DNA of 64,000 nt, taken from the NCBI GenBank assembly GCA_024279495.1, contig JAJRRL010000003.1, positions 2,323-66,322 of the forward strand. Direction: 5' to 3'. This document shows, one piece after another, positions 12,551-37,390 of the stretch. The DNA comes from Gammaproteobacteria bacterium (GTDB lineage: Bacteria; Pseudomonadota; Gammaproteobacteria; JAJRRL01). Within the stretch, counting starts at the first letter, position 1. The number at the start of each line of letters is the position of its first letter. The notes under the pieces were generated by a model. That model worked only from the letters and a program-made list of their open reading frames with translations. It was not told the DNA's origin and searched no databases. Position numbers and translations under genes: made by a program.

Positions 12551-13176
12551 AGCTCCTTCTTTTTTTCTTGCATGCGAGCAAGAGCTGCTTGAATGGCATC
12601 TTGCCTTGCTTTCAAGCTTGTTTTTTTTGGGCCACTTTTTTTCATGGATTGATGTTTGCTTCGGTGATCTTTGCTGCGGCGCTTGTCTCGAGTTTGATGA
12701 TTGTCAAAGCGAGTACGCCAAATATTTTGTTGTGTTTTAGCGTCCTCTCCTGTTTTTGCTTGAATAGGATGTATGTCAATGCAATCCATAGGGCAAGCAG
12801 GGATACAAAGCTCACAGCCTGTGCATGCATCAGCAATAACCGTATGCATTCGTTTGCTACGCCCTATGATGGCATCGGTTGGACAAACAGGTAAGCATTT
12901 TGTACAGCCTATACAAAGAGACTCATCGATGATGACAATGGAGGGGGCTTTGGTTATTTTTTTTAAATCATCTTCTAGATGCTCGGTGTCTTTTTCTAAA
13001 TATTTCCCGATAGCTCGCAATGTGGGTACGCCGCCAGGCAAGCATCGATTTAGAGGAGCATTTTCTTCAATAATCGCTTTAGCATAAGGACGGCAGCCAG
13101 GGTATTCACATAGCTCACATTGTGTTTGCGGTAGCAAAGCATCGATGGCATTGATCTGTGAATCGCTGTTGCTCAT
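12547..13176 (-). CDS. rnfB: RnfB-like 4Fe-4S ferredoxin (electron transport complex subunit B homologue)
   Basis: N-terminal CELCEYPGC cluster and two CxxCxxCxxxCP ferredoxin motifs (CIGCTKCLPVCP, CTGCELCIPACP). Conserved position immediately upstream of nth, with a 4-nt overlap. Confidence 0.75.
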   Translation of the reverse strand: MSNSDSQINAIDALLPQTQCELCEYPGCRPYAKAIIEENAPLNRCLPGGVPTLRAIGKYLEKDTEHLEDDLKKITKAPSIVIIDESLCIGCTKCLPVCPTDAIIGRSKRMHTVIADACTGCELCIPACPMDCIDIHPIQAKTGEDAKTQQNIWRTRFDNHQTRDKRRSKDHRSKHQSMKKSGPKKTSLKARQDAIQAALARMQEKKKEL

Positions 13177-13177
13177 G

Positions 13178-14833
13178 TTATGAGGTCTCGTTAGCAGTAG
13201 CGAGTAGCGCTTCTACTTGCTCTGGAGTGACACGACTTAGCAGTGGAGAGAAATCAGCGATTCTGTGGTTAAGTAAAGGTGTGTTGAGGCTATCCCAAGC
13301 TAAATTTTCGACACTTAAAAAGTCTTTTACTTGGCTGGCAATGTGAGGAATCACAGGGGCAAGATAGATTGAAAGCACTCTGAATAGTTCGACACCCATG
13401 CTGCATACAGCTTGTACCTTTGGATCTTGAGGATCGATTTTTGCTAAAGCCCACGGTTTGTTTGCGTCGATGTATTGATTCACGCGATCAGCGAGTGACA
13501 TAATAAGCCGGATTGCTCGAGCATAGTCTGTTGTGTCATACAGGTTAGCAATGGTCTCTTTTTCTTTTAGACATTCTTCTAGAAGTTCTGGATTGTCTAA
13601 ACTGCTTGATAGTGTGTTGTTGAAATGTTTTCGTAAGAAACCCGCGCAGCGGCTGGCGATGTTAATGTATTTGCCAACAAGATCTGCATTAACGCGTAGG
13701 CGAAAGTCTTCTAGGTTTAAGTCAATGTCATCGGCATTATTGCTTAATTTGGCAGCGTAATAATAGCGTAGGCAGTCAGGGTTTAGATGTGTCAGGTAGT
13801 TGCGAGCAGTAATAAACGTACCGCGAGATTTCGACATTTTTTCATTATTTAAGGTGAGGTAGCCGTGTACAAATAATTTAGTGGGTAAGCGTTTTTCTGT
13901 TGCATGTAAGACAGCAGGCCAAAACAAGCCGTGGAAATAAGCAATGTCTTTTCCGATAAATTGATACAGCGTAACATCGCTTTTTTCTCCCCAGTAACGA
14001 TCCATGTCGAGCTTGAGGTTGGGGTTGTTGTCAGCCAATTGTTTAAAGCTAGCAATGTAACCTATCGGTGCATCCATCCAGACATAAAAAAACTTATCGG
14101 TTTCACCAGGAATGGGAAAGCCAAAGTAAGGAGCGTCTCTGGATATATCCCAAGGGCGAAGCGTTTCTTTAAACCATTCCTTGAGTTTATTACTGACTCG
14201 CTCGGGTAGTGCGCCAGCGTCTAACCAATGTGTTAAAAACTCTCGCAGTGGTTCTAAAGCTAAGAAGACGTGTTCTGATTTTTTGTGGATCGGCGGTTTT
14301 CCTGAAAGAATGGAGCGTGGGTCCACTAACTCAGTAGAAGAATACGATGCGCCGCATGCTTCACAGTTGTCGCCGTATTGATCTTCGGCCTTGCACTTGG
14401 GGCAGATGCCTCGAACGTAGCGGTCTGGTAAGAACATGCCATGCTCTTCATCGTAGGCTTGCGAGATAGATTGCCGGATGATGTGGCCTTTGTCCTTGAG
14501 TGTTTGATACATATCTGAGACGAGTTCTTTATTTTCGGGTGAGTGAGTTGTGTAGAAATTGTCGAAAGCGAGATGAAAGGCAGCCAGATCTTCTTGGTGG
14601 TGTTTTCGGACACGCTCAGTGAGAGACTCGGGAGATTCATTATTCTCAGCAGCTTTTAGCATGATCGGAGTGCCATGTGCGTCTGAGCCACACAGGAAAA
14701 GAGTCTCTCGGCCTTGGGCTCGAGCTGCTCGCGAGGCAATATCCGCCTGAATGTACTCCACTAAATGCCCCAGATGGATATCGCCGTTGGCGTAGGGCAG
14801 CGCTGCTGTGATCATGAGTGGTGATTGGGTCAT
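13178..14833 (-). CDS. metG: Methionine--tRNA ligase (short form without the C-terminal tRNA-binding domain)
   Basis: HIGH-type motif (GDIHLGHLVEY), KMSKS, zinc knuckle CPKC...CEAC. 551 aa. Confidence 0.9.
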   Translation of the reverse strand: MTQSPLMITAALPYANGDIHLGHLVEYIQADIASRAARAQGRETLFLCGSDAHGTPIMLKAAENNESPESLTERVRKHHQEDLAAFHLAFDNFYTTHSPENKELVSDMYQTLKDKGHIIRQSISQAYDEEHGMFLPDRYVRGICPKCKAEDQYGDNCEACGASYSSTELVDPRSILSGKPPIHKKSEHVFLALEPLREFLTHWLDAGALPERVSNKLKEWFKETLRPWDISRDAPYFGFPIPGETDKFFYVWMDAPIGYIASFKQLADNNPNLKLDMDRYWGEKSDVTLYQFIGKDIAYFHGLFWPAVLHATEKRLPTKLFVHGYLTLNNEKMSKSRGTFITARNYLTHLNPDCLRYYYAAKLSNNADDIDLNLEDFRLRVNADLVGKYINIASRCAGFLRKHFNNTLSSSLDNPELLEECLKEKETIANLYDTTDYARAIRLIMSLADRVNQYIDANKPWALAKIDPQDPKVQAVCSMGVELFRVLSIYLAPVIPHIASQVKDFLSVENLAWDSLNTPLLNHRIADFSPLLSRVTPEQVEALLATANETS

Positions 14834-18398: not shown

Positions 18399-19187
18399 AT
18401 GAAAAAAATCTCACGGTATGCCGTCGTTGCACTTGCTTGCTTAACAGCCTCCTGCCACGATAAGTCATCCACATTAGAGGTGGGTGTGATTGCTGGGCCA
18501 GAAGCACAGCTTGCGCTTGAAGCTGCTGATGTAGCGAAGAAAAAATACGGACTGTCAGTGAGTCTTGTGCCTTTTACGGACTACAACGTACCGAATATGG
18601 CTTTAGCTGATGGCAGTATTGATGTGAATGTGTTTCAGCATAAACCCTTTCTGGAAGCACAAGAAAAAGCTCGGGGATATAAATTTGTCATTCTAGGGCG
18701 AACATTTATTTATCCCATGGCGCTTTATTCTAAAAAAATAAAAACGTTAGCGGCCTTGAAAGAGGGATCAAAAATTGCTATTCCAAATGATCCAAGTAAC
18801 GAGGCTAGAGCTCTGTTGTTGCTTCAAGATGCATCGCTTATCACACTTAAGCCAGGCGTCGGTTTTACCGCAACGCCTTTGGCAATTGTAGCTAACCCAA
18901 AACATCTCAAAATCATTCCTTTGTCTGCCGCTCAGTTACCTCGAGCCTTAGGCGATGTGGCTTTAGCTGCGATCAATACAAACTATGCACGTGCGGCTGA
19001 ATTGTCGCCAGCTCGCGATGGTTTGTTTTTGGAAAAGAAAAGCTCTGCGTATGCAAACATCATGGTAGCTCGGGCAAGTGATAAAAATGACCCTCGCTTA
19101 ATGGAATACGTTAAAGCCATGCAAAGTGAAGCGGTGCTTAAAAAAGCTCATGAGTTATTTGGTGATGATGTGATGAAAGCTTGGTAA
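18399..19187 (+). CDS. metQ: Methionine-binding lipoprotein (NlpA/MetQ family)
   Basis: Lipobox LTASC. 262 aa. Follows metNI in the canonical order. RBS AAAAGGAG. Confidence 0.85.
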   Translation: MKKISRYAVVALACLTASCHDKSSTLEVGVIAGPEAQLALEAADVAKKKYGLSVSLVPFTDYNVPNMALADGSIDVNVFQHKPFLEAQEKARGYKFVILGRTFIYPMALYSKKIKTLAALKEGSKIAIPNDPSNEARALLLLQDASLITLKPGVGFTATPLAIVANPKHLKIIPLSAAQLPRALGDVALAAINTNYARAAELSPARDGLFLEKKSSAYANIMVARASDKNDPRLMEYVKAMQSEAVLKKAHELFGDDVMKAW

Positions 19188-19193
19188 ATGGCT

Positions 19194-19239
19194 GTTTATA
19201 TTTCTACTGTACGGGCACTACTTGAATGATTTTCTGCGT
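19194..19239 (+). repeat. Direct repeat family F copy 1 (46 bp)
   Basis: gtttatatttctactgtacgggcactacttgaatgattttctgcgt is repeated at 19335-19381. Confidence 0.8.
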
Positions 19240-19334
19240 GTCACTGCTCACATACCGTGTGTACGCTGCGCTGCAATACTCAAAAATCTTCCAATTAGCA
19301 CTCCACACAGCGAAATCTAAATCAGCCACTTGAG

Positions 19335-19381
19335 TGTTTATATTTCTACTGTGCGGGCACTACTTGAATGATTTTCTGCGT
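19335..19381 (+). repeat. Direct repeat family F copy 2
   Basis: Near-identical to 19194-19239 (one or two mismatches). Confidence 0.8.
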
Positions 19382-19422
19382 TTCGCTTTTGTTGGCGCCC
19401 CGGGGATGTAGCGAGCCCACAC

Positions 19423-19502
19423 TTGTCACCCGAAGGCAATGTAATGACGTAGGGGGCCTAGCTTCGATCCAGTTTGTACGAAGTGCGAACTAAGGATCTT
19501 TA
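19423..19502 (+). repeat. MITE-like repeat family A copy 3
   Basis: cttgtcacccgaaggcaatgtaatgacgtagggggcctagcttcgatccagtttgtacgaagtgcgaactaaggatctt. Confidence 0.8.
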
Positions 19503-19511
19503 CCAATTTTA

Positions 19512-19560
19512 TTTTTAAAAGCAGTGTGCAGGGTTGTACTCACGATAAGGTTAGGGCTTA
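19512..19560 (-). repeat. Repeat family C copy 2
   Basis: Its reverse complement matches ctttcaagattaagccctaaccttatcgtgagtacaaccctgcacactgc. Confidence 0.7.
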
Positions 19561-19563
19561 ATC

Positions 19564-19643
19564 TTGAAAGATCGCTAGTTGTTACCTTGTAACAACGGAT
19601 CAAGCCTGGGTCCTCGACGTCACTTCGTTCCTGAGGATGACAA
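19564..19643 (-). repeat. MITE-like repeat family B copy 1 (~80 bp, inverted orientation)
   Basis: Reverse complement of cttgtcatcctcaggaacgaagtgacgtcgaggacccaggcttgatccgttgttacaaggtaacaactagcgatctttcaa. Confidence 0.8.
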
Positions 19644-29005: not shown

Positions 29006-29491
29006 ATGCCTTCATTTGATGTTGTATCTGCGCCTGACTGGCACGAAATTAGTAATGCGGTGGATCAAGCAAACCGAGAAGTAACGACACGTTTTGATTT
29101 TAAAGGAACTAATTCGTCGTTTGAATTAAAAGAAAAAGAAGTCGCCATGACAACAGAAGCCGACTTTCAGCTTAAGCAGATGCTCGATATGTTTCGCGGT
29201 AAGCTCGTGAAGCGAGGGGTGGATTTGGGTTTTCTAGAAGAAGATGAGCCAACGCTGCATCATAAAAAGGCAACGCAAAATTTGCGCTTTAAAGATGGTT
29301 TATCCACAGAGACCGCAAAAAAGATCACGAAAGGGCTCAAAGCCATGAAGTTTAAAGTCCAAGCGCAAATTCAAGGTGAGCAAGTTCGTGTCACTGGCAA
29401 GAAGCGAGATGACTTGCAGGTGGTGATTACGTACCTTAAAGAGAATGAAGATGAGTACGCGCCCATGGAATACACCAACTTCCGCGATTAA
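29006..29491 (+). CDS. yajQ: YajQ family nucleotide-binding protein (UPF0234)
   Basis: MPSFDVVS...RFDFKG and the two-domain YajQ pattern. 161 aa. Confidence 0.8.
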   Translation: MPSFDVVSAPDWHEISNAVDQANREVTTRFDFKGTNSSFELKEKEVAMTTEADFQLKQMLDMFRGKLVKRGVDLGFLEEDEPTLHHKKATQNLRFKDGLSTETAKKITKGLKAMKFKVQAQIQGEQVRVTGKKRDDLQVVITYLKENEDEYAPMEYTNFRD

Positions 29492-29497
29492 AAACCG

Positions 29498-29536
29498 CAT
29501 CTTTGGGCATCTTCAGTGTCGATCTTGCGCTTCCGG
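29498..29536 (+). repeat. Direct repeat family E copy 1 (39 bp)
   Basis: gcatctttgggcatcttcagtgtcgatcttgcgcttccgg is repeated exactly at 29618-29657. Confidence 0.85.
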
Positions 29537-29617
29537 TACTCATGTACTCTATGTACATTCCGTTCCGTTGCTCAGCTCTCCTTGAATATGCATCAAAGCT
29601 GCGATTTTTAGTGGCTA

Positions 29618-29657
29618 GCATCTTTGGGCATCTTCAGTGTCGATCTTGCGCTTCCGG
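29618..29657 (+). repeat. Direct repeat family E copy 2
   Basis: Identical to 29498-29536. Confidence 0.85.
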
Positions 29658-29678
29658 AAGATTAAATAGCCCCAACCA

Positions 29679-29758
29679 CTTGTCATCCTCAGGAATGAAA
29701 TGACGTCGAGGACCCAGGCTTGATCCGTTGTTACAACGTAACAACTAGGATCTTTCAA
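29679..29758 (+). repeat. MITE-like repeat family B copy 3
   Basis: cttgtcatcctcaggaatgaaatgacgtcgaggacccaggcttgatccgttgttacaacgtaacaactaggatctttcaa. Confidence 0.85.
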
Positions 29759-29760
29759 GA

Positions 29761-29806
29761 TTCAGCCCTAACCCTACCGTGAGCTTAACTCTGCAGACTG
29801 CTTTTA
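29761..29806 (+). repeat. Repeat family C copy 4
   Basis: ttcagccctaaccctaccgtgagcttaactctgcagactgc. Confidence 0.7.
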
Positions 29807-29823
29807 GAAATTAAAGTTTATAT

Positions 29824-29900
29824 AGATCCTTAGTTCATGCTTCGCACGAACTGGATCGAAGCTAGGCCCCCGACGTCACTGCGTTGCCTTTGGGTGACAG
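29824..29900 (-). repeat. MITE-like repeat family A copy 4 (inverted)
   Basis: agatccttagttcatgcttcgcacgaactggatcgaagctaggcccccgacgtcactgcgttgcctttgggtgacag. Confidence 0.8.
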
Positions 29901-29924
29901 AAAAGGGGTCATTTCCCAACGAAG

Positions 29925-29946
29925 TAACAACTAGGATCTTTCAAGA
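29925..29946 (+). repeat. Partial family B 3'-end fragment that overlaps the stop codon of the gene at 29941..30975
   Basis: gtaacaactaggatctttcaagat. Confidence 0.6.
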
Positions 29947-30975
29947 TGTAAGCTTAACGACCTTATGCTCCACACCCTTATCATTTCTTTTTTGAATGCA
30001 GCGGCATAGATAGGCAATGCATTTTTTGAAGAATTCCGTGATACGAAGACAGAGTGCGGTGAAGCTACAGCGGGGGGTGTCGGCAAAAGCAGGGGCGGCA
30101 TTAATTAGAATATTGACCTTAAGTTTGTCTTGCGCAAATTTTTTGCACCAATCAAGGTCAGATTGATCGGGTTCGGTAGCTGATGTATCAGCCTCTTCAT
30201 CTGCTAAAGAGCAAGCTTGAATTCGCTTAATAAAGTATGTGCTAATACTTGGTGTGGAGTCTGTTTGCTCAAGATTTATTATGGCAGCTGCTTTTCTGTG
30301 TATGGCGCTAATACTCAAGCTGCTATCTAAGGCAAGAGTTTCCTTCTTGTTTTTATACATGATTAGCAAGTTCATTTGACCTTTTGCATTTTGATACTCC
30401 AGAGCAAGGCAAGCGTGCTCGTCTTGCCCGAACTGTATGACGTACAGCATAGCCTGCTCATTATGATTGAATCTGAGCATTGAGTTGAGCTTGGCTTTAG
30501 ATTTGTGAGGTAGTGAGCGACGGCTGGATTTGTTTATGTTCGCAGAAAAATCAGGATCCCCATTAAAAGAGATGTGCCGTTTGAACATCTCCTTAGCAAA
30601 CTGCTGGCACCATTGATAATCAGTTTGATTGTCAGAGGTCGGAGGTGTGTCGGCGGTTTTTTGTTTGGATAAAGAGGTGATCAGCGAATGCTGAATGACA
30701 TATGATTGAACTGAGGCCAAACGGTCGGTGGGCCTGAAAGCTAAGATTGCAATGGCTTTGGAGAAGATATCATTGCGATATTGCTTATCATGTAGGGTAA
30801 GCTCGGTGGCAGCTCTATAAATAAAGAGTATGGCGGCCTGTTGTTTGATGGTTTTATGCTCAATAGCAAGGCAGGCTCGCTGGTCTTCTTTGAAATCAAG
30901 CACATGTAGGAGAGCGTTCTCTTGATTGAAAGAGAAGCAGCTATCAAGTTTGCTCGTTATTTCTTGCTTTGCCAT
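29941..30975 (-). CDS. Hypothetical protein (344 aa) built from two tandem ~150-aa repeats, with a Cys-rich C-terminal tail
   Basis: Repeat 1 (..ENALLHVLDFKEDQRACLAIEH..DYQWCQQFAKE) against repeat 2 (..EQAMLYVIQFGQDEHACLALEY..DLDWCKKFAQD). Confidence 0.55.
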   Translation of the reverse strand: MAKQEITSKLDSCFSFNQENALLHVLDFKEDQRACLAIEHKTIKQQAAILFIYRAATELTLHDKQYRNDIFSKAIAILAFRPTDRLASVQSYVIQHSLITSLSKQKTADTPPTSDNQTDYQWCQQFAKEMFKRHISFNGDPDFSANINKSSRRSLPHKSKAKLNSMLRFNHNEQAMLYVIQFGQDEHACLALEYQNAKGQMNLLIMYKNKKETLALDSSLSISAIHRKAAAIINLEQTDSTPSISTYFIKRIQACSLADEEADTSATEPDQSDLDWCKKFAQDKLKVNILINAAPAFADTPRCSFTALCLRITEFFKKCIAYLCRCIQKRNDKGVEHKVVKLTS

Positions 30976-31362
30976 GCTGTCGTTTATTCCTAGGTGGATG
31001 ATAGGTTAAATATTAACCATTTTAGAGGTCGGAGTCAATCGAGAAGAAGCTTTTATGGTGCTAGCATGTCTTAGTGGTTGGGACGATCAATTCTGCTCAT
31101 TCAGCCCAACAAAAAAACAATCAGATTATCTCTCACAAGCCCCAGGCTGATCTCCGATACGGCCTTTTAGAGCTGTCTGATCTGGACTGGCGTTATCACC
31201 TAAAGACTGACGTATTTAAGAACAAAAGTTGATTAAATATAGAGCCGGGAAGAATAGTAGGCAATTTTTGCTTAAAAATCAACGACTAGCGTCACATAAG
31301 TTCCAAAAACAGACCATATTTAAAGCAGTTCTAGCGTTTTTTTTTATCGAAAATGAGGAAAA

Positions 31363-31399
31363 GTGGGTTATCAAGTGGTATAATGTGGGTAGATGTGGA
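31363..31399 (+). promoter_or_regulatory. Candidate mraZ promoter with an MraZ-type operator: four GTGG(G) direct repeats at ~10-bp spacing around a TATAAT box
   Basis: GTGGGttatcaaGTGGtataatGTGGGtagatGTGGA, with TATAAT at 31378-31383. Confidence 0.45.
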
Positions 31400-31408
31400 G
31401 GGATCGAC

Positions 31409-31870
31409 ATGTTTAGAGGACTTACAGCTATCACCGTTGATGCGAAGGGGCGCTTGGCGATCCCAACTCGTTATCGCGCCTCGATTGAGGAAGAAGCGAA
31501 AGGTCGTCTAGTGGCAACAATCAACACCATGGATTCGTGTTTGTTGCTATACACTTTACAGGAGTGGGAAGCCATCGAAGAGAAGCTCTCTCAGTTATCT
31601 AGTTTTCATCCAGCAACGCGCCGTATTCAGCGTCTGCTCATTGGTCATGCAACCGACATGGACATGGATCGCAGTGGTCGAATTTTGTTGCCAGCACTGC
31701 TTCGTGACTATGCTCAGATTGATTCTCAAGTGATGCTTGTAGGACAAGGTAATAAATTTGAATTGTGGGCTGAAGAAAGATGGCGTGAAGCATGCCACGA
31801 ATGGCTCGATGACGATGGCTCTGATGAAGATGGCAACCTCCCGTCAGAATTAGCGGGGCTTTCACTATGA
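31409..31870 (+). CDS. mraZ: Transcriptional regulator MraZ
   Basis: It starts MFRGLTAITVDAKGRLAIPTRYR and has two SpoVT/AbrB-like repeats. RBS GGAG. The ORF-track extension to 31229 is rejected. Confidence 0.9.
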   Translation: MFRGLTAITVDAKGRLAIPTRYRASIEEEAKGRLVATINTMDSCLLLYTLQEWEAIEEKLSQLSSFHPATRRIQRLLIGHATDMDMDRSGRILLPALLRDYAQIDSQVMLVGQGNKFELWAEERWREACHEWLDDDGSDEDGNLPSELAGLSL

Positions 31871-32820
31871 CAGAAAAATATACTCATCAAGCCGTTTTGT
31901 TGCAAGAAGCTATTGATGCTTTAGCTATTCATCCAGCGGGTGTTTATCTCGATGGTACTCTTGGTCGAGGCGGGCATAGCCGTTTAATTTTAGAGCATTT
32001 GGGCCAAGATGGTCGCTTAATTGCTTTTGATCAAGATCCTGTGTTGGCAGATGCTGATCAGCGTCCAGCAGAACTTGCTGAGATGTTTGCTGATCCACGC
32101 TTTGAATTTGTGTCAGCGAATTTTGTCTCTCTCCAAGCGGAGTTAGAAAAGCGAGACTTGCTTGGGCGAATCAATGGCATTTTATTAGACATTGGGGTGT
32201 CATCACCACAGATTGATGATCCCGCACGAGGTTTCAGTTCTGACCATGATGGTCCACTGGACATGCGTATGGATACGCGACAAGGAAGCCCAGCCTCTGA
32301 GTGGCTGGCGTCAGTGGATGAGTCGACCTTAGCGCGAGTGATTAAGCGTTACGGTGAACATCCTAGAGCACGAACGATTGCACAGGCTATTTTGCGTGAG
32401 CAATCGTTTGAGCCTATTACTACCACACGCGAATTGCGTGATGTGATTTTGAAGTCAGTCGGGCCGTCTCCTTCAGGAAAGTCACCTGTTGGTCAGGTCT
32501 TTCAAGCCATTCGGATTGAAATCAACCGAGAGTTGCAGGTGTTGGAAGAGACCTTGCCGCAATGTGCAGCAGCGCTGACAGCTGGTGGTCGTTTGGCTGT
32601 GATTAGTTTTCATTCACTGGAAGACCGAGTCGTCAAAACATTTATCCAACGTGAATCAGCAGGCAACGACTGGGTTCCAGGCATGCCTGTACCAGAATAC
32701 AATCAACCAGCACGTTTTCGTCAGATCACTCGTTTATTACGTCCTAGTGCTGAAGCAATAGAAGCTAATCCGCGCGCTCGTAGTGCTAGGTTGCGTGTGG
32801 CAGAGAGGTTATCGTTATGA
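31867..32820 (+). CDS. rsmH: 16S rRNA (cytosine1402-N4)-methyltransferase
   Basis: HQAVLLQEAIDAL...DGTLGRGGHS...LLDIGVSSPQ. 317 aa. Confidence 0.9.
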   Translation: MTEKYTHQAVLLQEAIDALAIHPAGVYLDGTLGRGGHSRLILEHLGQDGRLIAFDQDPVLADADQRPAELAEMFADPRFEFVSANFVSLQAELEKRDLLGRINGILLDIGVSSPQIDDPARGFSSDHDGPLDMRMDTRQGSPASEWLASVDESTLARVIKRYGEHPRARTIAQAILREQSFEPITTTRELRDVILKSVGPSPSGKSPVGQVFQAIRIEINRELQVLEETLPQCAAALTAGGRLAVISFHSLEDRVVKTFIQRESAGNDWVPGMPVPEYNQPARFRQITRLLRPSAEAIEANPRARSARLRVAERLSL

Positions 32821-33152
32821 ACGCTATCGTACACGCATTTAAATCATCCATGACACAAGTTGCAGGTCGCGTTTGGGTATTGCCTCGTGCTTGGCAATTG
32901 CGCGGGATGATGTGTCTTGTCTCCCTAATCGTTTTATCAGCGCTTGCTTTAGTGTATATCAAAGACACCAATCGTTTGTTGCTTGCTGATACAGAAAGCG
33001 TACGAGTGTCTGTTGAAGCACAACGCTGGCAGCATGATGAACTGTTGGTTCAGCGAGGTCAGCTGCTGAGAGCCGATGTATTGGCGAGTAAAGCAAGAGC
33101 TCTTAACATGGACATGCCAAGTCATATTCAGTTTATTGAGGTGCTTAATTAG
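32817..33152 (+). CDS. ftsL: Cell division protein FtsL
   Basis: A small bitopic protein (one TM, then a coiled coil) in the canonical slot between rsmH and ftsI. Confidence 0.6.
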   Translation: MNAIVHAFKSSMTQVAGRVWVLPRAWQLRGMMCLVSLIVLSALALVYIKDTNRLLLADTESVRVSVEAQRWQHDELLVQRGQLLRADVLASKARALNMDMPSHIQFIEVLN

Positions 33153-33167
33153 CCTCAAAGGATATCA

Positions 33168-34829
33168 ATGATGCCACGATTTTCTCAAAAGGCTCGAACA
33201 CGGTGTATGCATGGTTTGCTGATTGTGTTGTGCTTTTTAATCGTCGCTCGTCTTATCGATTTAATGATTGTTCAACGTGATTTTTTAGTGGCGCAAAGCA
33301 GAGCTCGTATTTTACGTAAGCTTCCCATGTCTGCTAGACGAGGCATTATTTATGATCGGAAACACAAAGCATTAGCTGTGAGTGCTCCTGTGAAAGCAGT
33401 GTGGGTTGATCCTACTGATTTTCCATTAAATAATAAAAATATAGCGAGACTCACGCAACCACTAGGTTTGTCTGAGTCTGCTATCAAAAAACGCATAGTA
33501 AAACACCGTTCTAGTGAGTTTGTTTATATCAAGCGAGGTGTTCTAGCGAAAGAAGCGAAAGCCATTCAAGCCTTGAATTTGCCGGGAGTGTATTTACGAA
33601 CAGAGTATCGTCGGTTTTACCCACAAGGTGAGTTGTTTTCACATTTGGTGGGCGTGACCAATGTGGATGAGCGTGGGCAAGAAGGCATAGAGTTAAGTTA
33701 CGACACATGGTTGCGAGGAATTAGTGGTAAAAAAACGGTGATTCGTGATCGCCTTGGTCGAGTGGTTTCTAACTTACGTGTGAATCGCAAACCCAAACAA
33801 GGTCATGACTTGCAGTTAAGTGTGGATACTAGCATTCAATACGCAGCTGCAGATGCTTTGAAAAAAGCGGTGAAAGAACACGATGCTGTTTCTGGTTCTG
33901 TGGTGGTGATCGACGCACAAAACGGTGACCTATTAGCAATGGTTAATTACCCAAGCTATGATCCAAATCAACGTCGTGGCGTGCCCATGTCGCATCGGCG
34001 TAACCGAGCAGTGACTGATTCTTTTGAGCCGGGCTCTACTATTAAACCATTCACCGTGGTAGGTGCTTTGGAAAGCGGTCGGTACAATAGTAAAAGTGTG
34101 ATTCATACATCGCCTGGCTGGATGCGTGTGGGTCGATTCACTATTCGTGACGAATTAAATTACGGTGATGTGACCTTACGACGCTTGCTTAAAAAATCCA
34201 GCAACATTGGTGCGGCTAAAATCATGTTGTCGTTAGATCCTCAAGCTTATTCTGAACAATTGAGTCAGTTTGGTTTTGGTGTGCGAACGCAAAGTGGCTT
34301 GCAAGGTGAAGTATCGGGTCGACTTATTCCACATACGCATTGGGCATCGAGTGAAGTTGCGACCATGGCTTACGGTTATGGTATGTCTATCACCACCTTG
34401 CAGTTGGCGCATGCGTATTCCATTTTAGCCAGTGGTGGAATGAATTATCCGGTGCGTGTTTTAAAGCAAGACAAGCCGCCAATAGGAGAGCGTGTTATTC
34501 CTGCTCGTATTGCGCATCAAGTGTCAGACATGTTGTTTGCTGTGGTTGAAAAGGGGGGCACAGGAAAACGTGCACGTGTGGCAGGTTATCGTGTGGCTGG
34601 AAAAACAGGTACGGCAAACATTGCCACGCCTTCGGGTTACGATAAAAAACGTGTGATCAGTTCCTTTGTGGGTTACGCGCCAGCTTCGAAGCCACGTTTT
34701 GTGGTGGCAGTTGTGATTCGCGAACCGCACAAAAGCCATTTTGGTGCTTTGGTCGCTGCGCCGGCGTTTGCAAAAATTATGGCGGCGGCTCTTCATTCAT
34801 GGGCTGTATTACCGGACTCTGTAGGCTGA
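33168..34829 (+). CDS. ftsI: Peptidoglycan D,D-transpeptidase FtsI (PBP3)
   Basis: N-terminal TM. SxxK (STIKP), SxN (SSN), KTG(T) (KTGTA). 553 aa. Confidence 0.9.
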   Translation: MMPRFSQKARTRCMHGLLIVLCFLIVARLIDLMIVQRDFLVAQSRARILRKLPMSARRGIIYDRKHKALAVSAPVKAVWVDPTDFPLNNKNIARLTQPLGLSESAIKKRIVKHRSSEFVYIKRGVLAKEAKAIQALNLPGVYLRTEYRRFYPQGELFSHLVGVTNVDERGQEGIELSYDTWLRGISGKKTVIRDRLGRVVSNLRVNRKPKQGHDLQLSVDTSIQYAAADALKKAVKEHDAVSGSVVVIDAQNGDLLAMVNYPSYDPNQRRGVPMSHRRNRAVTDSFEPGSTIKPFTVVGALESGRYNSKSVIHTSPGWMRVGRFTIRDELNYGDVTLRRLLKKSSNIGAAKIMLSLDPQAYSEQLSQFGFGVRTQSGLQGEVSGRLIPHTHWASSEVATMAYGYGMSITTLQLAHAYSILASGGMNYPVRVLKQDKPPIGERVIPARIAHQVSDMLFAVVEKGGTGKRARVAGYRVAGKTGTANIATPSGYDKKRVISSFVGYAPASKPRFVVAVVIREPHKSHFGALVAAPAFAKIMAAALHSWAVLPDSVG

Positions 34830-35022
34830 AACAGTCGCTTTTTCTCTCCTTCTTTGCTTGCACCGTTGAAAAACGGTGTCCAGCCCGGCTCTCCTCGAAA
34901 GAAGAAAGATTACTTTACTTTAGGAATCAATACCATACGATTTTTAATTATTAAGAACAAATAAAGCTTGCGCTTTCATCCAGTGATGCAGTATTATTAT
35001 TGCTCAACTTTAGGGGGGTGTT

Positions 35023-36726
35023 ATGAAAAGTGATTCTGAGAGAAAAAGTAGGCAAGACAATAGTTTAAGTAGCAGCAAGGGGCATTTCCTGCTTGTCTCG
35101 AAATCTGATGTTGATGGTATTGAGGATAAATTGCGTCCCTCTGATGTTCAGGTATATCATCCTGAGACTCATATAGCAGGGTTCTATGTAGAGTCAAAAT
35201 TGCGCCCCTCTGGAATTCCTTCGTTTCAACCGGCTGGATCTAAGACAGCAGGGATCTCGGCAACGGGACTTTTTTCAGGAGAGAACAAAAACACGCCCTT
35301 AAGCTTATTTAAGCCTCACTTGAATACAGGTTTTGTGATGAATCCTTATCGTGTTGAAGCAAGGCAAGGAGATTTTGCGGCTTCTTATTCAGGAGGCCTC
35401 ACTCTTAAAGAGAAGCTTAAAGAAGCTGTGGACGGAGAAAAGCATTGGTATCACTTGGCTGATGGGCAAATTACAATAGATGGAAAAACAAAGTATCCGG
35501 GCAAGCCTGTTTTCTTTCGAGTAATGCAGTATGCAGCTAATCAGATGAGAATCAGAAATGTCGAGAGGCATGATGGTGCTGATAAGCGTATTAAAACAAA
35601 AGTGTTTTATTCCAAGGGAAACATGGCTGCCTTTGGCCGTAGGCTTTGGGAAAGGGTTAATACGAAGAAAGAAAAATACGCAGATGGCAAGTGGGCCATG
35701 GAAAGCAAGCTTAGCTATAATGAAGTGATTTGCTTTAAAAGAGAAGGCGTAGAAAATCCGATTGCAGGTTTGGCGTGGTTTGGCAAGGATCCGGATCAGC
35801 CGAAGGATTCGGAATGGAAGGCACACGTCACTTCTGTGAAGAAGAGATACCTTCAGTTATTAAAAGACTACAAGCATTTGGAGCTGTATTTCTATGAAGT
35901 TAAAGCAAATAAAAACATTGTTAGAGTCATGGAAAATGACCAAGCCATAGCTTTTTTAGGATCTAAAAAAAGCATGGAAAGTGGCTTTAAAAAAGCGACC
36001 CCTTTTACGGGCTTTCCTGAGCAGCCACATTTATTGCCCAAGCATGTTGTTTCCTTAGTGGAATCTGCGGAAGACTACTTACTTGATCCTACAGACCAAG
36101 AACCAGATTTTGTCACGGCATTTCTTAATGCTTACTCTGAGAAATGTGAAGCTTACAATCAATTAACAGCCAAAGAGAGAACCGTTGGTTTTTTAGAGTT
36201 GGTGGATTTGTATTATTCGAATGACAGCAGCGTTGAGGTGGGTTTTCTGGGGGCATGTTTTTCGGTAATACTTCCTAATGAAAGCCAGGAAATGTATAGA
36301 GAGAGAGCCAAGGCTAAGTGCATAGAATCAGCTTCAGCTGAGCCTACGGGTGCTTTGCCTGATTCTGCGGGTGCTTTGCCTGATTCTGCAGTTTCTGATG
36401 CTGCTTTGCCTGCCGGCGGCGTAAAACAAGAAAAGAGCAAACCGGTCACAAGAAAACGAGATAGCATTGCTCTTATCGTTGGAGCTGTTGCAGGGTATGC
36501 TGCTACTTTAGGTGGTGGTGCGGCAGCTGGTCTTGTTCTCTTTAATATGGTGCCTATGATGACTTCTACCGCAGCCTGGGCGTTTGTTGGCTTAGCCGTT
36601 GTGGGTCTTGCGGCAGGTATTATCACCACGATGGCGTTGACAAAGAGAGCAAAATCACAGAGCCTGTTTGGAAGTGGTGAGTCTTCGGCTGGAAGCTCAA
36701 ACGACACTTCTTTCCAAAAACAATAA
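35023..36726 (+). CDS. Hypothetical protein (567 aa) with a C-terminal hydrophobic hairpin (two long TM segments). Candidate membrane-inserted effector.
   Basis: N-terminal KLRPS-containing duplicated segment. GALPDSA x2 encoded by a perfect 21-bp tandem repeat at 36349-36390. C-terminus IALIVGAVAGYAATLGGGAAAGLVLFNMVPMM...AWAFVGLAVVGLAAGIITTMAL. Confidence 0.55.
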   Translation: MKSDSERKSRQDNSLSSSKGHFLLVSKSDVDGIEDKLRPSDVQVYHPETHIAGFYVESKLRPSGIPSFQPAGSKTAGISATGLFSGENKNTPLSLFKPHLNTGFVMNPYRVEARQGDFAASYSGGLTLKEKLKEAVDGEKHWYHLADGQITIDGKTKYPGKPVFFRVMQYAANQMRIRNVERHDGADKRIKTKVFYSKGNMAAFGRRLWERVNTKKEKYADGKWAMESKLSYNEVICFKREGVENPIAGLAWFGKDPDQPKDSEWKAHVTSVKKRYLQLLKDYKHLELYFYEVKANKNIVRVMENDQAIAFLGSKKSMESGFKKATPFTGFPEQPHLLPKHVVSLVESAEDYLLDPTDQEPDFVTAFLNAYSEKCEAYNQLTAKERTVGFLELVDLYYSNDSSVEVGFLGACFSVILPNESQEMYRERAKAKCIESASAEPTGALPDSAGALPDSAVSDAALPAGGVKQEKSKPVTRKRDSIALIVGAVAGYAATLGGGAAAGLVLFNMVPMMTSTAAWAFVGLAVVGLAAGIITTMALTKRAKSQSLFGSGESSAGSSNDTSFQKQ

Positions 36727-36739
36727 AAAGGAGGCTAGG

Positions 36740-37105
36740 ATGGCATTACTTTGGGTGTTTCTAGGTTGTGGTATCGGAGGCATGCTTCGTTATTGGGTCT
36801 CTGTGTTGTTGCGCGCTCAAAGTTTTCCTTATGCAACGCTTATTGTGAATGTCAGCGGCTCTTTTCTCATCGGCTTATTGGCTTCGCTCTTTCTTGCTCG
36901 ATGGAATCACTTAAGCTTTTTAAAGCCTTTATTACTGGTTGGTTTTTTGGGCGGCTACACGACCTTTTCATCGTTTTCACTAGAAACCTGGCGCTTGCTA
37001 GAATCAGGCAATCACTTAGGCGCCATCTGCAACATTGCGCTTAGCCTGATACTTTGCCTGTTTGCCGTCTGGCTAGGCTTGTGCTTGGGTCGTCAGATCG
37101 CGTAA
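36740..37105 (+). CDS. crcB: Fluoride ion channel CrcB/Fluc
   Basis: GIGGMLRY and GFLGGYTTFSSF motifs with 4 TM. A perfect RBS AAAAAGGAGG. 121 aa. Confidence 0.8.
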   Translation: MALLWVFLGCGIGGMLRYWVSVLLRAQSFPYATLIVNVSGSFLIGLLASLFLARWNHLSFLKPLLLVGFLGGYTTFSSFSLETWRLLESGNHLGAICNIALSLILCLFAVWLGLCLGRQIA

Positions 37106-37115
37106 GGCTAAGTCT
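37071..37115 (+). repeat. crcB 3'-end segment, copy 1 of a triplicated ~40-bp direct repeat
   Basis: ggcttgtgcttgggtcgtcagatcgcgtaaggctaag, with related copies at 37391-37434 and 39040-39083. Confidence 0.65.
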
Positions 37116-37164
37116 TTTATATCAGCAATCCCCATTTTTGGCCAAAATAGAAGAGCCCCAGCCT

Positions 37165-37244
37165 CTTGTCATTCCCAGGAACGTAGTGACGTAGGGAACC
37201 CAGGCTTGATCCGTTGTACGAAGGACAACTAGGATCTTTCAAAA
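37165..37244 (+). repeat. MITE-like repeat family B copy 4 (diverged)
   Basis: cttgtcattcccaggaacgtagtgacgtagggaacccaggcttgatccgttgtacgaaggacaactaggatctttcaaaat. Confidence 0.75.
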
Positions 37245-37266
37245 TTTGGCTTCAATCCTATTAGAC

Positions 37267-37312
37267 GAAAACTCTCTTCAAAATGCTCATATACTCGCAT
37301 GTACGCTTCGCT
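37267..37312 (+). repeat. Repeat family D copy 2
   Basis: gaaaactctcttcaaaatgctcatatactcgcatgtacgcttcgc. It is flanked by the inverted repeat gacgaaaa..ttttcgtc. Confidence 0.4.
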
Positions 37313-37390
37313 TTTTCATTGACTTTTCGTCTAACCTTGCCTCAAATCTGGGAATTTGATGTAGACTATAAATTTCGTTTATGCATTTTA

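Follow-up and report, generated by a model that had tools for sequence, protein, structure and literature searches.

Inverted doublets of two-hairpin repeat units behind genes of an uncultured gammaproteobacterium

The repeat unit and its doublets

Between yajQ on the plus strand and a gene for a 344-aa protein on the minus strand (29941-30975), contig JAJRRL010000003.1 of a gammaproteobacterium (assembly GCA_024279495.1) carries a pair of short hairpin-forming repeats in inverted orientation, and related copies lie behind other genes of the same region. We analysed a 64-kb stretch of this contig (positions 2,323 to 66,322), here called the window; the census of elements and the searches for enzymes apply to the window unless stated otherwise. 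At the yajQ locus the doublet occupies 29647-29900 and is made up of a leader (29647-29679), a B-type unit on the plus strand (29680-29757), a stretch called C, also in plus orientation (29758-29819), and an A-type unit on the minus strand (29820-29900). Head-to-head with the A arm stands a fragment of a B-type unit on the plus strand (29908-29947), which gives the 344-aa gene its last two codons and its stop codon (29941-29943). The preliminary description of this DNA had reported a 22-bp piece of B overlapping this stop codon; the overlap stands, and the match is of 24 nt rather than 22, with 29924-29947 identical to 29738-29761 and containing the TGA of the minus-strand gene. Judged from its 5' part, GTCATTTCCCAACGAAGT, the whole fragment would read as an internally deleted B-type unit. 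The genes named as neighbours of the repeats, encoding an AhpC-type peroxiredoxin, MetQ, YajQ, GlnII and CrcB, were all confirmed.

When the region 29650-29960 was used as a BLASTN query against the window, matches were obtained at 19643-19424 (minus strand, 87% identity over 221 nt), 26159-26319 (86%), 7392-7236 (minus strand, 80%), 44238-44387 (80%) and 37151-37246 (83%), as well as to a solo copy at about 7055-7144. A degenerate core of 25 nt, TGACGTMGRGRRCCYAGSYTYRATC, has nine matches in the window against 0.00 expected from 100 shuffles. The covariance model R1, built from nine copies and run over the window with filters off, recovered nine copies at 78-102 bits and added a tenth, diverged unit at 7378-7462 on the minus strand (32.6 bits, E = 1e-5). 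Alignment of the nine copies resolved A and B into two subfamilies of one unit of about 80 nt, which agrees with the earlier claim that they are related hairpin elements of ~80 bp. C had been listed as a third family and is instead a spacer of about 60 nt between inverted units. Identity ranges from 61 to 96% between units and from 73 to 87% between composites.

Each unit is preceded by a leader of 10-40 nt, which in the B-type units and in the copy at 7057 is about 33 nt long (TGCGCTTCCGGAAGATTAAATAGCCCCAACCAC) and in the A-type units is a C-rich stretch of about 10 nt. The unit itself opens with the head TTGTCAY, present in all ten units, and continues into hairpin 1, a covarying stem of 5 bp with a conserved loop of 17 nt (AGGAAYGNARTGACGTM). 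The tail CCYAG and a spacer, GCTTGATCC, lead to hairpin 2, which has 13 bp (5 + 8 bp) and a conserved bulge of 2-3 nt on its 3' side (CTA/CTAA), and the unit ends in TCTTTC or TCTTTA. Columns that are invariant across units are TGTCA in the head and CC.AG in the tail, while stem pairs switch together between C-G and U-A. By subfamily, the stem of hairpin 1 is CCCCC/GGGGG, TCCTC/GAGGA or TTCCC/GGGAA, all paired substitutions, and the upper stem of hairpin 2 is GTTGTTAC/GTAACAAC in one and GTCCGTGC/GCACGGAC in the other, with further variants.

In the nine copies 93% of the cells in the proposed helices are paired, compared with 30-47% when the partners are slid against each other, and eight pairs are compensatory. 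With the tenth unit included the values are 94% versus 33-46%, with compensatory change at 12 of 21 pairs, and the observed values were reached in 0 of 500 shuffles. The same helices were obtained independently with RNAalifold. The stems of the tenth unit are wholly different (CCCGGC/GCCGGG; GATTTCGTTTCAGC/GCTGAGAC..GAAAT) in an unchanged layout, and a half-unit at 44204-44244 also retains a hairpin with an unrelated stem sequence. We also considered a first helix formed by GTCAY and RTGAC. In B-type units it is competitive on thermodynamic grounds, but covariation, which the helix adopted here displays, is missing from its one variable pair.

These results bear on one alternative, namely that the likenesses come from chance, from an assembly artefact or from local segmental duplication. 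The source is evidently a metagenome-assembled contig, and local tandem duplications do occur nearby, for instance the 40-bp perfect repeat at 29497 and 29618. But the ten copies are diverged, lie in both orientations at six separate loci dispersed across 37 kb and have a chance expectation of zero, and substitutions that preserve pairing are not produced by mis-assembly or by recent duplication. Because of this dispersal and these substitutions we reject the explanation, which has hardly any probability left.

The five loci reported before, with their orders and orientations, were all found again by BLASTN and repeat finding in the window. A composite of ~230 bp had been proposed as the mobile unit; an inverted doublet of about 220 bp does recur, with C in a fixed relative orientation in six of six cases, and it may be mobile. 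The loci at 7237, 26189 and 44251 had been taken for partial versions, which they are not, as each has a second inverted unit that had been overlooked. At 7237 this is the diverged unit 7378-7462(-), at 26189 a short variant whose end, GGGGTGACAG, lies at 26366, and at 44251 a half-unit with hairpin 2 only (44204-44244). Each of the five C-containing loci is an inverted doublet, about 180-226 bp long and with its heads outward, a layout that matches a REPIN (an inverted doublet of repetitive extragenic palindromes). Eight of the ten units detected by the model lie in these doublets, the other two being solo. Two doublets, those of the units at 26189 and 44388, have a second arm that the model did not detect (the short variant, which we call E-type, and the half-unit). 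Arms within a doublet are about 70% identical to each other. Folding the composite, a check suggested with the earlier claims, gave for a single strand of the 29.7-kb doublet one long hairpin with a three-way junction (z -5.2 for the plus strand and -5.9 for the minus strand).

Along the window, the first copy is a solo unit with an A-type core on the plus strand (7024-7136; leader 7024-7056, core 7057-7136; 102 bits by R1), which starts 6 nt past the ahpC stop codon (7016-7018) and has the leader common to B-type copies. It is followed by a full doublet at 7237-7462, with A at 7237-7316(+), C(-) at 7317-7377 and the diverged B-like arm at 7378-7462(-); its A unit scores 93 bits and it aligns end to end with the other doublets. 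The next full doublet, 19423-19643, lies between metQ(+) and the RNase P RNA gene (19960-20330, minus strand), consists of A 19423-19503(+), C(-) 19504-19564 and B 19565-19643(-), scores 91 bits for each unit and is 87% identical to 29899-29680 over 221 nt. At 26156-26366 the left part is regular (leader 26156-26188, B 26189-26266(+), C(+) 26267-26319) and the right arm is the short E-type unit on the minus strand, with a weak fold. A partial C (26389-26420), with a 32-nt match to C at two other loci, and a second E-type unit with its head at 26482 follow at 26389-26482(-), found by a scan for the head motif and marginal by R1 (E = 6.7).

The two units of the yajQ doublet score 92.6 and 92.2 bits by R1. 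Behind crcB there is a solo B-type unit on the plus strand (37133-37265; leader 37133-37165, core 37166-37241, then about the first 24 nt of C), with 78 bits by R1, BLAST matches to the 26k and 29k copies and TTGTCATTCCC-N17-GGGAACCCAG as its hairpin 1. The last doublet, 44204-44388, between glnII(+) and a gene for a 392-aa protein(-), has a truncated left arm: the half-unit 44204-44244(+) is spacer and hairpin 2 with a third stem sequence and a hairpin of 7 bp, and C(+) at 44251-44307 and A at 44308-44388(-) complete it. Three relics were also recorded. An 18-nt A-type head, GTGTCACCCGAAGGCAAC, is found by the head-motif scan at 8250-8267(-), directly after an RNase T-like gene (8287-8931, minus strand). 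A possible relic of the superfamily after ftsI (34853-34889, plus strand; TTGCACCGTTGAAAAACGGTGTCCAG) has an 8-bp stem, a CCAG tail, a head one base short and a fold z of -2.8, and a second copy of this hairpin, forming a repeat pair with it, lies at 41705-41740(-) downstream of the aspartokinase/diaminopimelate (DAP) decarboxylase gene.

The ends of the elements grade into the leaders of 10-40 nt and into further repeat modules common to the same intergenic regions. With leaders and other modules beyond the units, the elements lack sharp ends, and the intergenic regions are mosaics in the manner of BIMEs and NIMEs rather than simple insertions. At least four further short repeat families, at 73-96% identity, occur in varying combinations within the unit-bearing regions, with the pairs 7496-7588 / 26063-26156, 19751-19814 / 37299-37362, 19864-19920 / 29526-29582 and 7145-7167 / 37268-37290. 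The perfect 40-bp direct repeat just 3' of yajQ (29497-29536 / 29618-29657) has a period of 121 bp, and the 81 bp between its copies match 19864-19920 inverted, a recent local duplication inside the mosaic.

Position, strand and a possible role in RNA

Counting intergenic regions of at least 60 bp in the window, we found units in three of four convergent regions, in three of 14 co-directional regions and in none of seven divergent regions. The enrichment in convergent regions gave p = 0.03 (Fisher), and the chance of missing every divergent region is 0.10 for the six occupied regions, or 0.03 when the three relic-only regions (8250-8267, 34853-34889 and 41705-41740) are included. The preliminary description placed the copies systematically at the 3' ends of genes; units do lie only downstream of genes, and the enrichment is only modestly significant in one window (p ~0.03-0.1). 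Solo units and the gene-proximal arms of doublets are oriented as the upstream gene, and in both doublets between co-directional genes it is the antisense arm that is degenerate. Among the pairs that are not Watson-Crick there are 10 G-U and 2 A-C on the unit's own (sense) strand, in keeping with a structure that is read from a single strand only, be it in RNA or in single-stranded DNA.

A role as terminators had been suggested as well. No U-tract follows any unit hairpin, hairpin 2 being followed only by TCTTTC or TCTTTA, and the 34 terminator-like sites found in 19000-38000 include no unit hairpin. The hairpins are therefore not canonical Rho-independent terminators. A role in stabilising or processing messenger RNA is possible, with indirect support from the G-U excess on the sense strand and from the better preservation of units in sense orientation. 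In Escherichia coli, repetitive extragenic palindromic (REP) sequences stabilise the upstream mRNA.

Alternatively, the units may not be mobile at all and may belong to the host as a module of the 3' untranslated region (3' UTR), serving as a bidirectional terminator, an exonuclease barrier, a processing site or a source of small RNA, copied by recombination and kept by selection. The placement at gene 3' ends only, with three of the four convergent gene pairs occupied, the co-orientation of solo units with the upstream gene, the G-U excess on the sense strand, the better preservation of the sense arms in co-directional doublets and the compensatory change that maintains the hairpins would all be in keeping with this, as would the stabilising effect of REPs in E. 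coli. Yet neither hairpin has a U-tract, no unit was called in the terminator scan and no Rfam family matches. The orthologous yajQ, metQ and mraZ neighbourhoods in relatives have no units, so that the units are not needed for these genes, and the inverted doublets, subfamilies, truncated copies and overlap with a coding end resemble selfish spread. We consider such a purely host-serving module unlikely.

In the first 45 kb of the window, unusually long intergenic regions are for the most part accounted for by the ten units and their relics. In annotation they should be masked or labelled, lest they be taken for small-RNA genes, promoters or terminators. GC skew is strongly and uniformly positive across 1-64000 (+0.11 to +0.20), and the plus strand carries the majority of genes. 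By these signs the entire window belongs to a single replichore, in which the plus strand is the leading one. With respect to the replication strand the repeat units show no bias (six plus, four minus).

Several other features of the window may be mentioned here. The three large open reading frames (ORFs) at 20849-28955, described before as paralogues, are true paralogues with identities of 40% and 26%. They stand in tandem (20849-23293, 23504-26080 and 26592-28955), encode 787-858 aa without a Pfam or NCBIfam match, and to judge by eye from their long hydrophobic stretches appear to be multi-pass membrane proteins; in one relative a single gene of 909 aa corresponds to them in position. Their products may be membrane or effector proteins specific to the lineage. 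Downstream of metQ there is a 53-bp direct repeat (19193-19245 / 19335-19387, 94% identical), and the stretch 19200-19316 resembles non-coding DNA by metQ in a relative (locus L020, 13958-14075; about 70% similarity) and, over 63 nt, a Coxiellaceae metagenome-assembled genome (locus L015, 2938-3000; about 75%), with no Rfam match. From this similarity it may be a conserved non-coding element or a small RNA. At 41842-41903 two copies of a near-perfect palindrome of 29 bp, ATAATCGCTTCATATTATGAAGCGATTAG, lie 33 bp apart and overlap the start of a DUF4172/Fic gene at 41879; by their sequence they look like a putative tandem operator for a dimeric regulator.

Relation to known repeats and distribution

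Oriented hairpin repeats of a similar plan are known from Neisseria. The dRS3 repeat, ATTCCC(N8)GGGAAT, builds the NIME arrays (PMC3898611). The 28-nt NTS, CGTCATTCCCGCGMAVGCGGGAATCYRG, is an oriented hairpin which the GIY-YIG nuclease SsnA cuts in single-stranded DNA, with the bases 5' of the palindrome governing cleavage and the C after the palindrome governing binding, and its generalised form, the Ssn-related motif (SRM), is reported to be widespread, with a reported enrichment of symbionts among SRM-rich genomes (PMC11893778). The same dRS3/NTS hairpin of Neisseria also seeds a population of REPINs (inverted doublets of REPs) tied to a Group 2 REP-associated tyrosine transposase, or RAYT (bioRxiv 10.1101/2021.07.10.451892). 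Hairpin 1 of the window units retains the head, outer stem and tail of NTS/dRS3 (CGTCATTCCC...GGGAATCCAG), and shares with them the orientation of the hairpin, the 5' head (C/T)GTCAY, a covarying stem and the conserved ..CCAG tail. An example is the unit at 37166, GTCATTCCC-N17-GGGAACCCAG, in which GTCATTCCC...GGGAA.CCAG is common to unit and NTS. Like the NIMEs, in which dRS3 is joined with RS elements, the units form intergenic mosaic arrays by genes together with other modules. Unlike NTS, they carry an obligatory second hairpin. A relaxed scan for head, stem and tail was discarded, as it gave 12 matches versus about eight in shuffled sequence and missed the long-loop units.

With REPs, REPINs and the BIMEs of E. 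coli the units have in common that they are short extragenic hairpins with a conserved head, mixed in mosaics and located behind genes. The inverted doublet of a REPIN is thought to be the replicating entity and singlets its remnants, and doublets predominate here. The window unit differs from a REP in having 80 nt and two hairpins as against about 35 nt and one hairpin, and from a REPIN in that the inverted units stand about 60 nt apart, so that the doublet measures ~220 bp.

The order to which Coxiella belongs has its own described element, QMITE2 of C. burnetii (PMC5896051). It measures 150-190 bp, has inverted ends, exists both at full size and in a small REP-like version, lies mainly in 3' UTRs and between genes, overlaps gene ends by a few bp and is marked by direct repeats of 7-11 bp and a GTAG palindrome. 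The elements described here come from the same bacterial order and overlap a gene end by a few bp (29941-29947), and QMITE2 is the closest described analogue in that order. They differ in having neither direct repeats of 7-11 bp nor the GTAG palindrome. The secA locus of C. burnetii (GCA_021493565.1; locus L025) contains two repeats of about 200 bp, 7777-7975 and 13157-13355, which from their inverted ends and GTAG are probably QMITE2, and the window elements have no detectable sequence similarity to these two.

Correia, ERIC, BOX and RUP elements are likewise small, non-coding, hairpin-forming and multi-copy, often co-transcribed with their neighbours, and BOX is modular (boxA, boxB, boxC). 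The window elements differ from them in lacking a TA or other fixed target duplication, sequence similarity, sharp ends and a site for integration host factor (IHF), whose consensus was found inside none of the elements. Integron attC sites, CRISPR and tRNA-derived elements were rejected in the absence of an integrase, regular spacing or a tRNA-like fold.

Among the proteins encoded in the window are an LbtU-type porin, a fused aspartokinase/DAP decarboxylase, ankyrin and Fic proteins and a SecA that is 61% identical to that of C. burnetii and 75% to that of the best relative. From this gene content and these identities the source is an uncultured Coxiella-like gammaproteobacterium. The repeats were looked for widely. 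Rfam searches of the whole window at gathering thresholds, and of the 29.5-kb and 19.2-19.9-kb regions at permissive E-values, returned only RNase P RNA and noise. An exact-pattern scan for the repeat core gave no match in 185,579 representative genomes, and BLAST gave none to the repeats in plasmids. The covariance model found no match in relatives and C. burnetii (about 102 kb in all), and by BLAST the family is absent from the 318 kb of loci that were fetched. One locus in four related samples of a metagenome collection matched 29 bp of the 3' half of the unit with neither head nor stem, and was judged a chance match. On these searches the repeat family is lineage-specific.

Relatives at 74-75% protein identity have no units near yajQ, metQ, mraZ and secA; they are too distant, and too changed in gene order, to offer a clean empty site. 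A head-motif scan of the fetched loci did reveal elements of their own, with a leader, a TGTCAY head, hairpin 1, a YCCAG tail and hairpin 2, and with loops of 4-5 nt. In one relative (locus L018, YajQ 74% identical) the element reads TTGTCATCCC...GCTGTCATCCCATTGAAAAATGGGATCCAGTTGGATCAGTTGCGGGCACAGCCCGC, with an inverted ...CCCCTTTTTCCAAAGGGGTGACAA about 130 bp further, and in another (locus L023, SecA 75% identical) it reads CCCCCAGCACTGTCATTCCTGCGAAAGCAGGAAACCAGG followed by a GCGGGC/GCCCGC hairpin. Both fold well (z -3.2 and -4.6). In C. burnetii, at 8052-8140 of its secA locus, a near-canonical NTS hairpin, CGTCATTCCCGCGCAGGCGGGGACCCAG, lies within an inverted doublet of about 88 bp; such hairpins therefore occur in Coxiella itself. 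Compared with the 28-nt NTS consensus, the C. burnetii copy has two differences and the L023 copy four, two of which compensate each other, and we estimate the chance expectation of such a match at about 3e-4 in the 318 kb searched. The family in the window is homologous in plan to these elements of its relatives. The junction of mraZ and yajQ varies between two closely related metagenomic contigs: a hairpin element of ~150 bp with TTGTCAY ends in one (L018, 937-1141) corresponds to an AAA_14/DUF4143 gene in the other (L020, 8657-9932). Because this gene occupies the place in L020, the junction is not a clean empty site; it might mark a recombination hot spot.

How the doublets may have spread

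The boundaries of six elements were scanned for target-site duplications at offsets of 0-45 nt on each side, about 2,000 combinations. The lone notable direct repeat was an 8-bp one, AAATCTCT, flanking 7025-7146, which is within chance for that number of combinations. The scan bears on the reading as a classical miniature inverted-repeat transposable element (MITE), a non-autonomous cut-and-paste composite of ~220 bp whose A and B arms would be terminal inverted repeats of 47-80 bp, bound as double-stranded DNA by the DDE transposase of a full-length insertion sequence elsewhere in the genome, with the solo units as decayed halves. In their size, inverted arms, multiple dispersed intergenic copies and long-hairpin fold (z about -5 to -6) the elements are like typical MITEs; the 8-bp repeat flanks one solo element, and QMITE2 of the same order is alike in size, versions, 3'-UTR site and stop-codon overlaps (PMC5896051). 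However, no consistent target duplication was seen at the four doublets scanned, the ends are blurred, grading into leaders and repeat modules, and the arms are only about 70% alike. Double-stranded recognition of the ends would not demand compensatory changes in the internal hairpins of the arms, and the head and tail match a type of hairpin that is handled as single-stranded DNA (PMC11893778). Neither an IHF site in the elements nor a transposase gene in the window was found, and the sequence of the elements does not resemble that of the probable QMITE2 copies of C. burnetii. A classical MITE thus seems to us a doubtful explanation.

The reading we prefer, with a probability of roughly 0.55, is that the family consists of lineage-specific extragenic hairpin repeats of the REP/NTS type, whose doublet has been multiplied by an enzyme acting in trans on hairpins in single-stranded DNA and whose copies persist behind genes. 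It is the NTS/dRS3/REP type of the first hairpin that favours such an enzyme over a classical cut-and-paste transposase. The mobility, the enzyme and the role at the RNA level are what we infer. The enzyme would recognise the hairpins in single-stranded DNA and multiply the doublet, and candidates, with genes outside the window, are a HUH transposase of the RAYT type or a process in which an Ssn-type GIY-YIG nuclease is involved. Copies would survive only where they are harmless or helpful, which is behind genes. There, a unit in sense orientation would be transcribed into the 3' UTR as two hairpins and may protect or process the mRNA.

A number of observations weigh against this proposal. Neither the 64-kb window nor the relatives' loci contain a gene for a RAYT (Y1_Tnp) or a GIY-YIG nuclease (ssn, cd10448), and a search of all frames of the window gave no GIY-YIG match or motif. 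No common length or position of a target-site duplication emerged from the six elements scanned, and at the identities given above there are no recent copies, nor were empty sites found. The conserved 17-nt loop of the window units, compared with 3-8 nt in NTS, has no counterpart in NTS or REP. The published SRM expression, HGTCWYN(0-2)YYVSBRHN(0-5)WNVSBRGN(0-2)RNCYNB, has no match in the window, one in the C. burnetii locus L025 and one in the fetched locus L016, and the window units fail it because of the 17-nt loop and their stem composition. Likewise dRS3 (ATTCCC-N8-GGGAAT) has no window match with up to one mismatch, and the GT(A/G)G head of REPs is lacking, with GTAG at neither end of the window units. 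Single units are barely more stable than shuffled sequence (z 0 to -2), so the case for structure rests on covariation and not on folding energy. The statistics on position and strand (p ~0.03-0.1) come from six to nine loci of common ancestry. Taking these together with the likenesses described above, we class the family as working like an oriented hairpin repeat of the NTS/REP type, which stands outside dRS3/NTS by the published criteria.

The 198-aa ORF at 7649-8245 is bracketed by repeat units upstream and by the 18-nt relic 8250-8267 downstream. It was considered as a RAYT or Ssn enzyme and rejected, as it has no family match and its product is acidic and, by eye, apparently coiled-coil.

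As a long shot, a conserved 17-nt insert with a second, opposite GTCAY head may have taken the place of the short loop of an NTS-type hairpin in the A/B unit, the loop sequence RTGACGT of the top strand being ACGTCAY on the bottom strand. The unit would then be a site recognised on both strands by an Ssn- or RAYT-like enzyme of new specificity. With its second hairpin it could also have been domesticated as a 3'-UTR module. Binding of a CsrA-type regulator would fit the conserved AGGAA in the loop of hairpin 1 and UAAGGAUC in hairpin 2.

The family adds to the known class of REP, REPIN, NTS and MITE-like hairpin repeats, its unusual points being the enlarged conserved loop and the obligatory second hairpin. 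In a derived form, it extends the NTS/dRS3 type of repeat, recently tied to nucleases that cut single-stranded DNA at specific sites, to environmental Coxiella-like bacteria. If a matching enzyme were found in the full genome, the pair would represent a new specificity in that enzyme family and a marker for rearrangements in the lineage; otherwise this is an ordinary lineage-specific repeat family.

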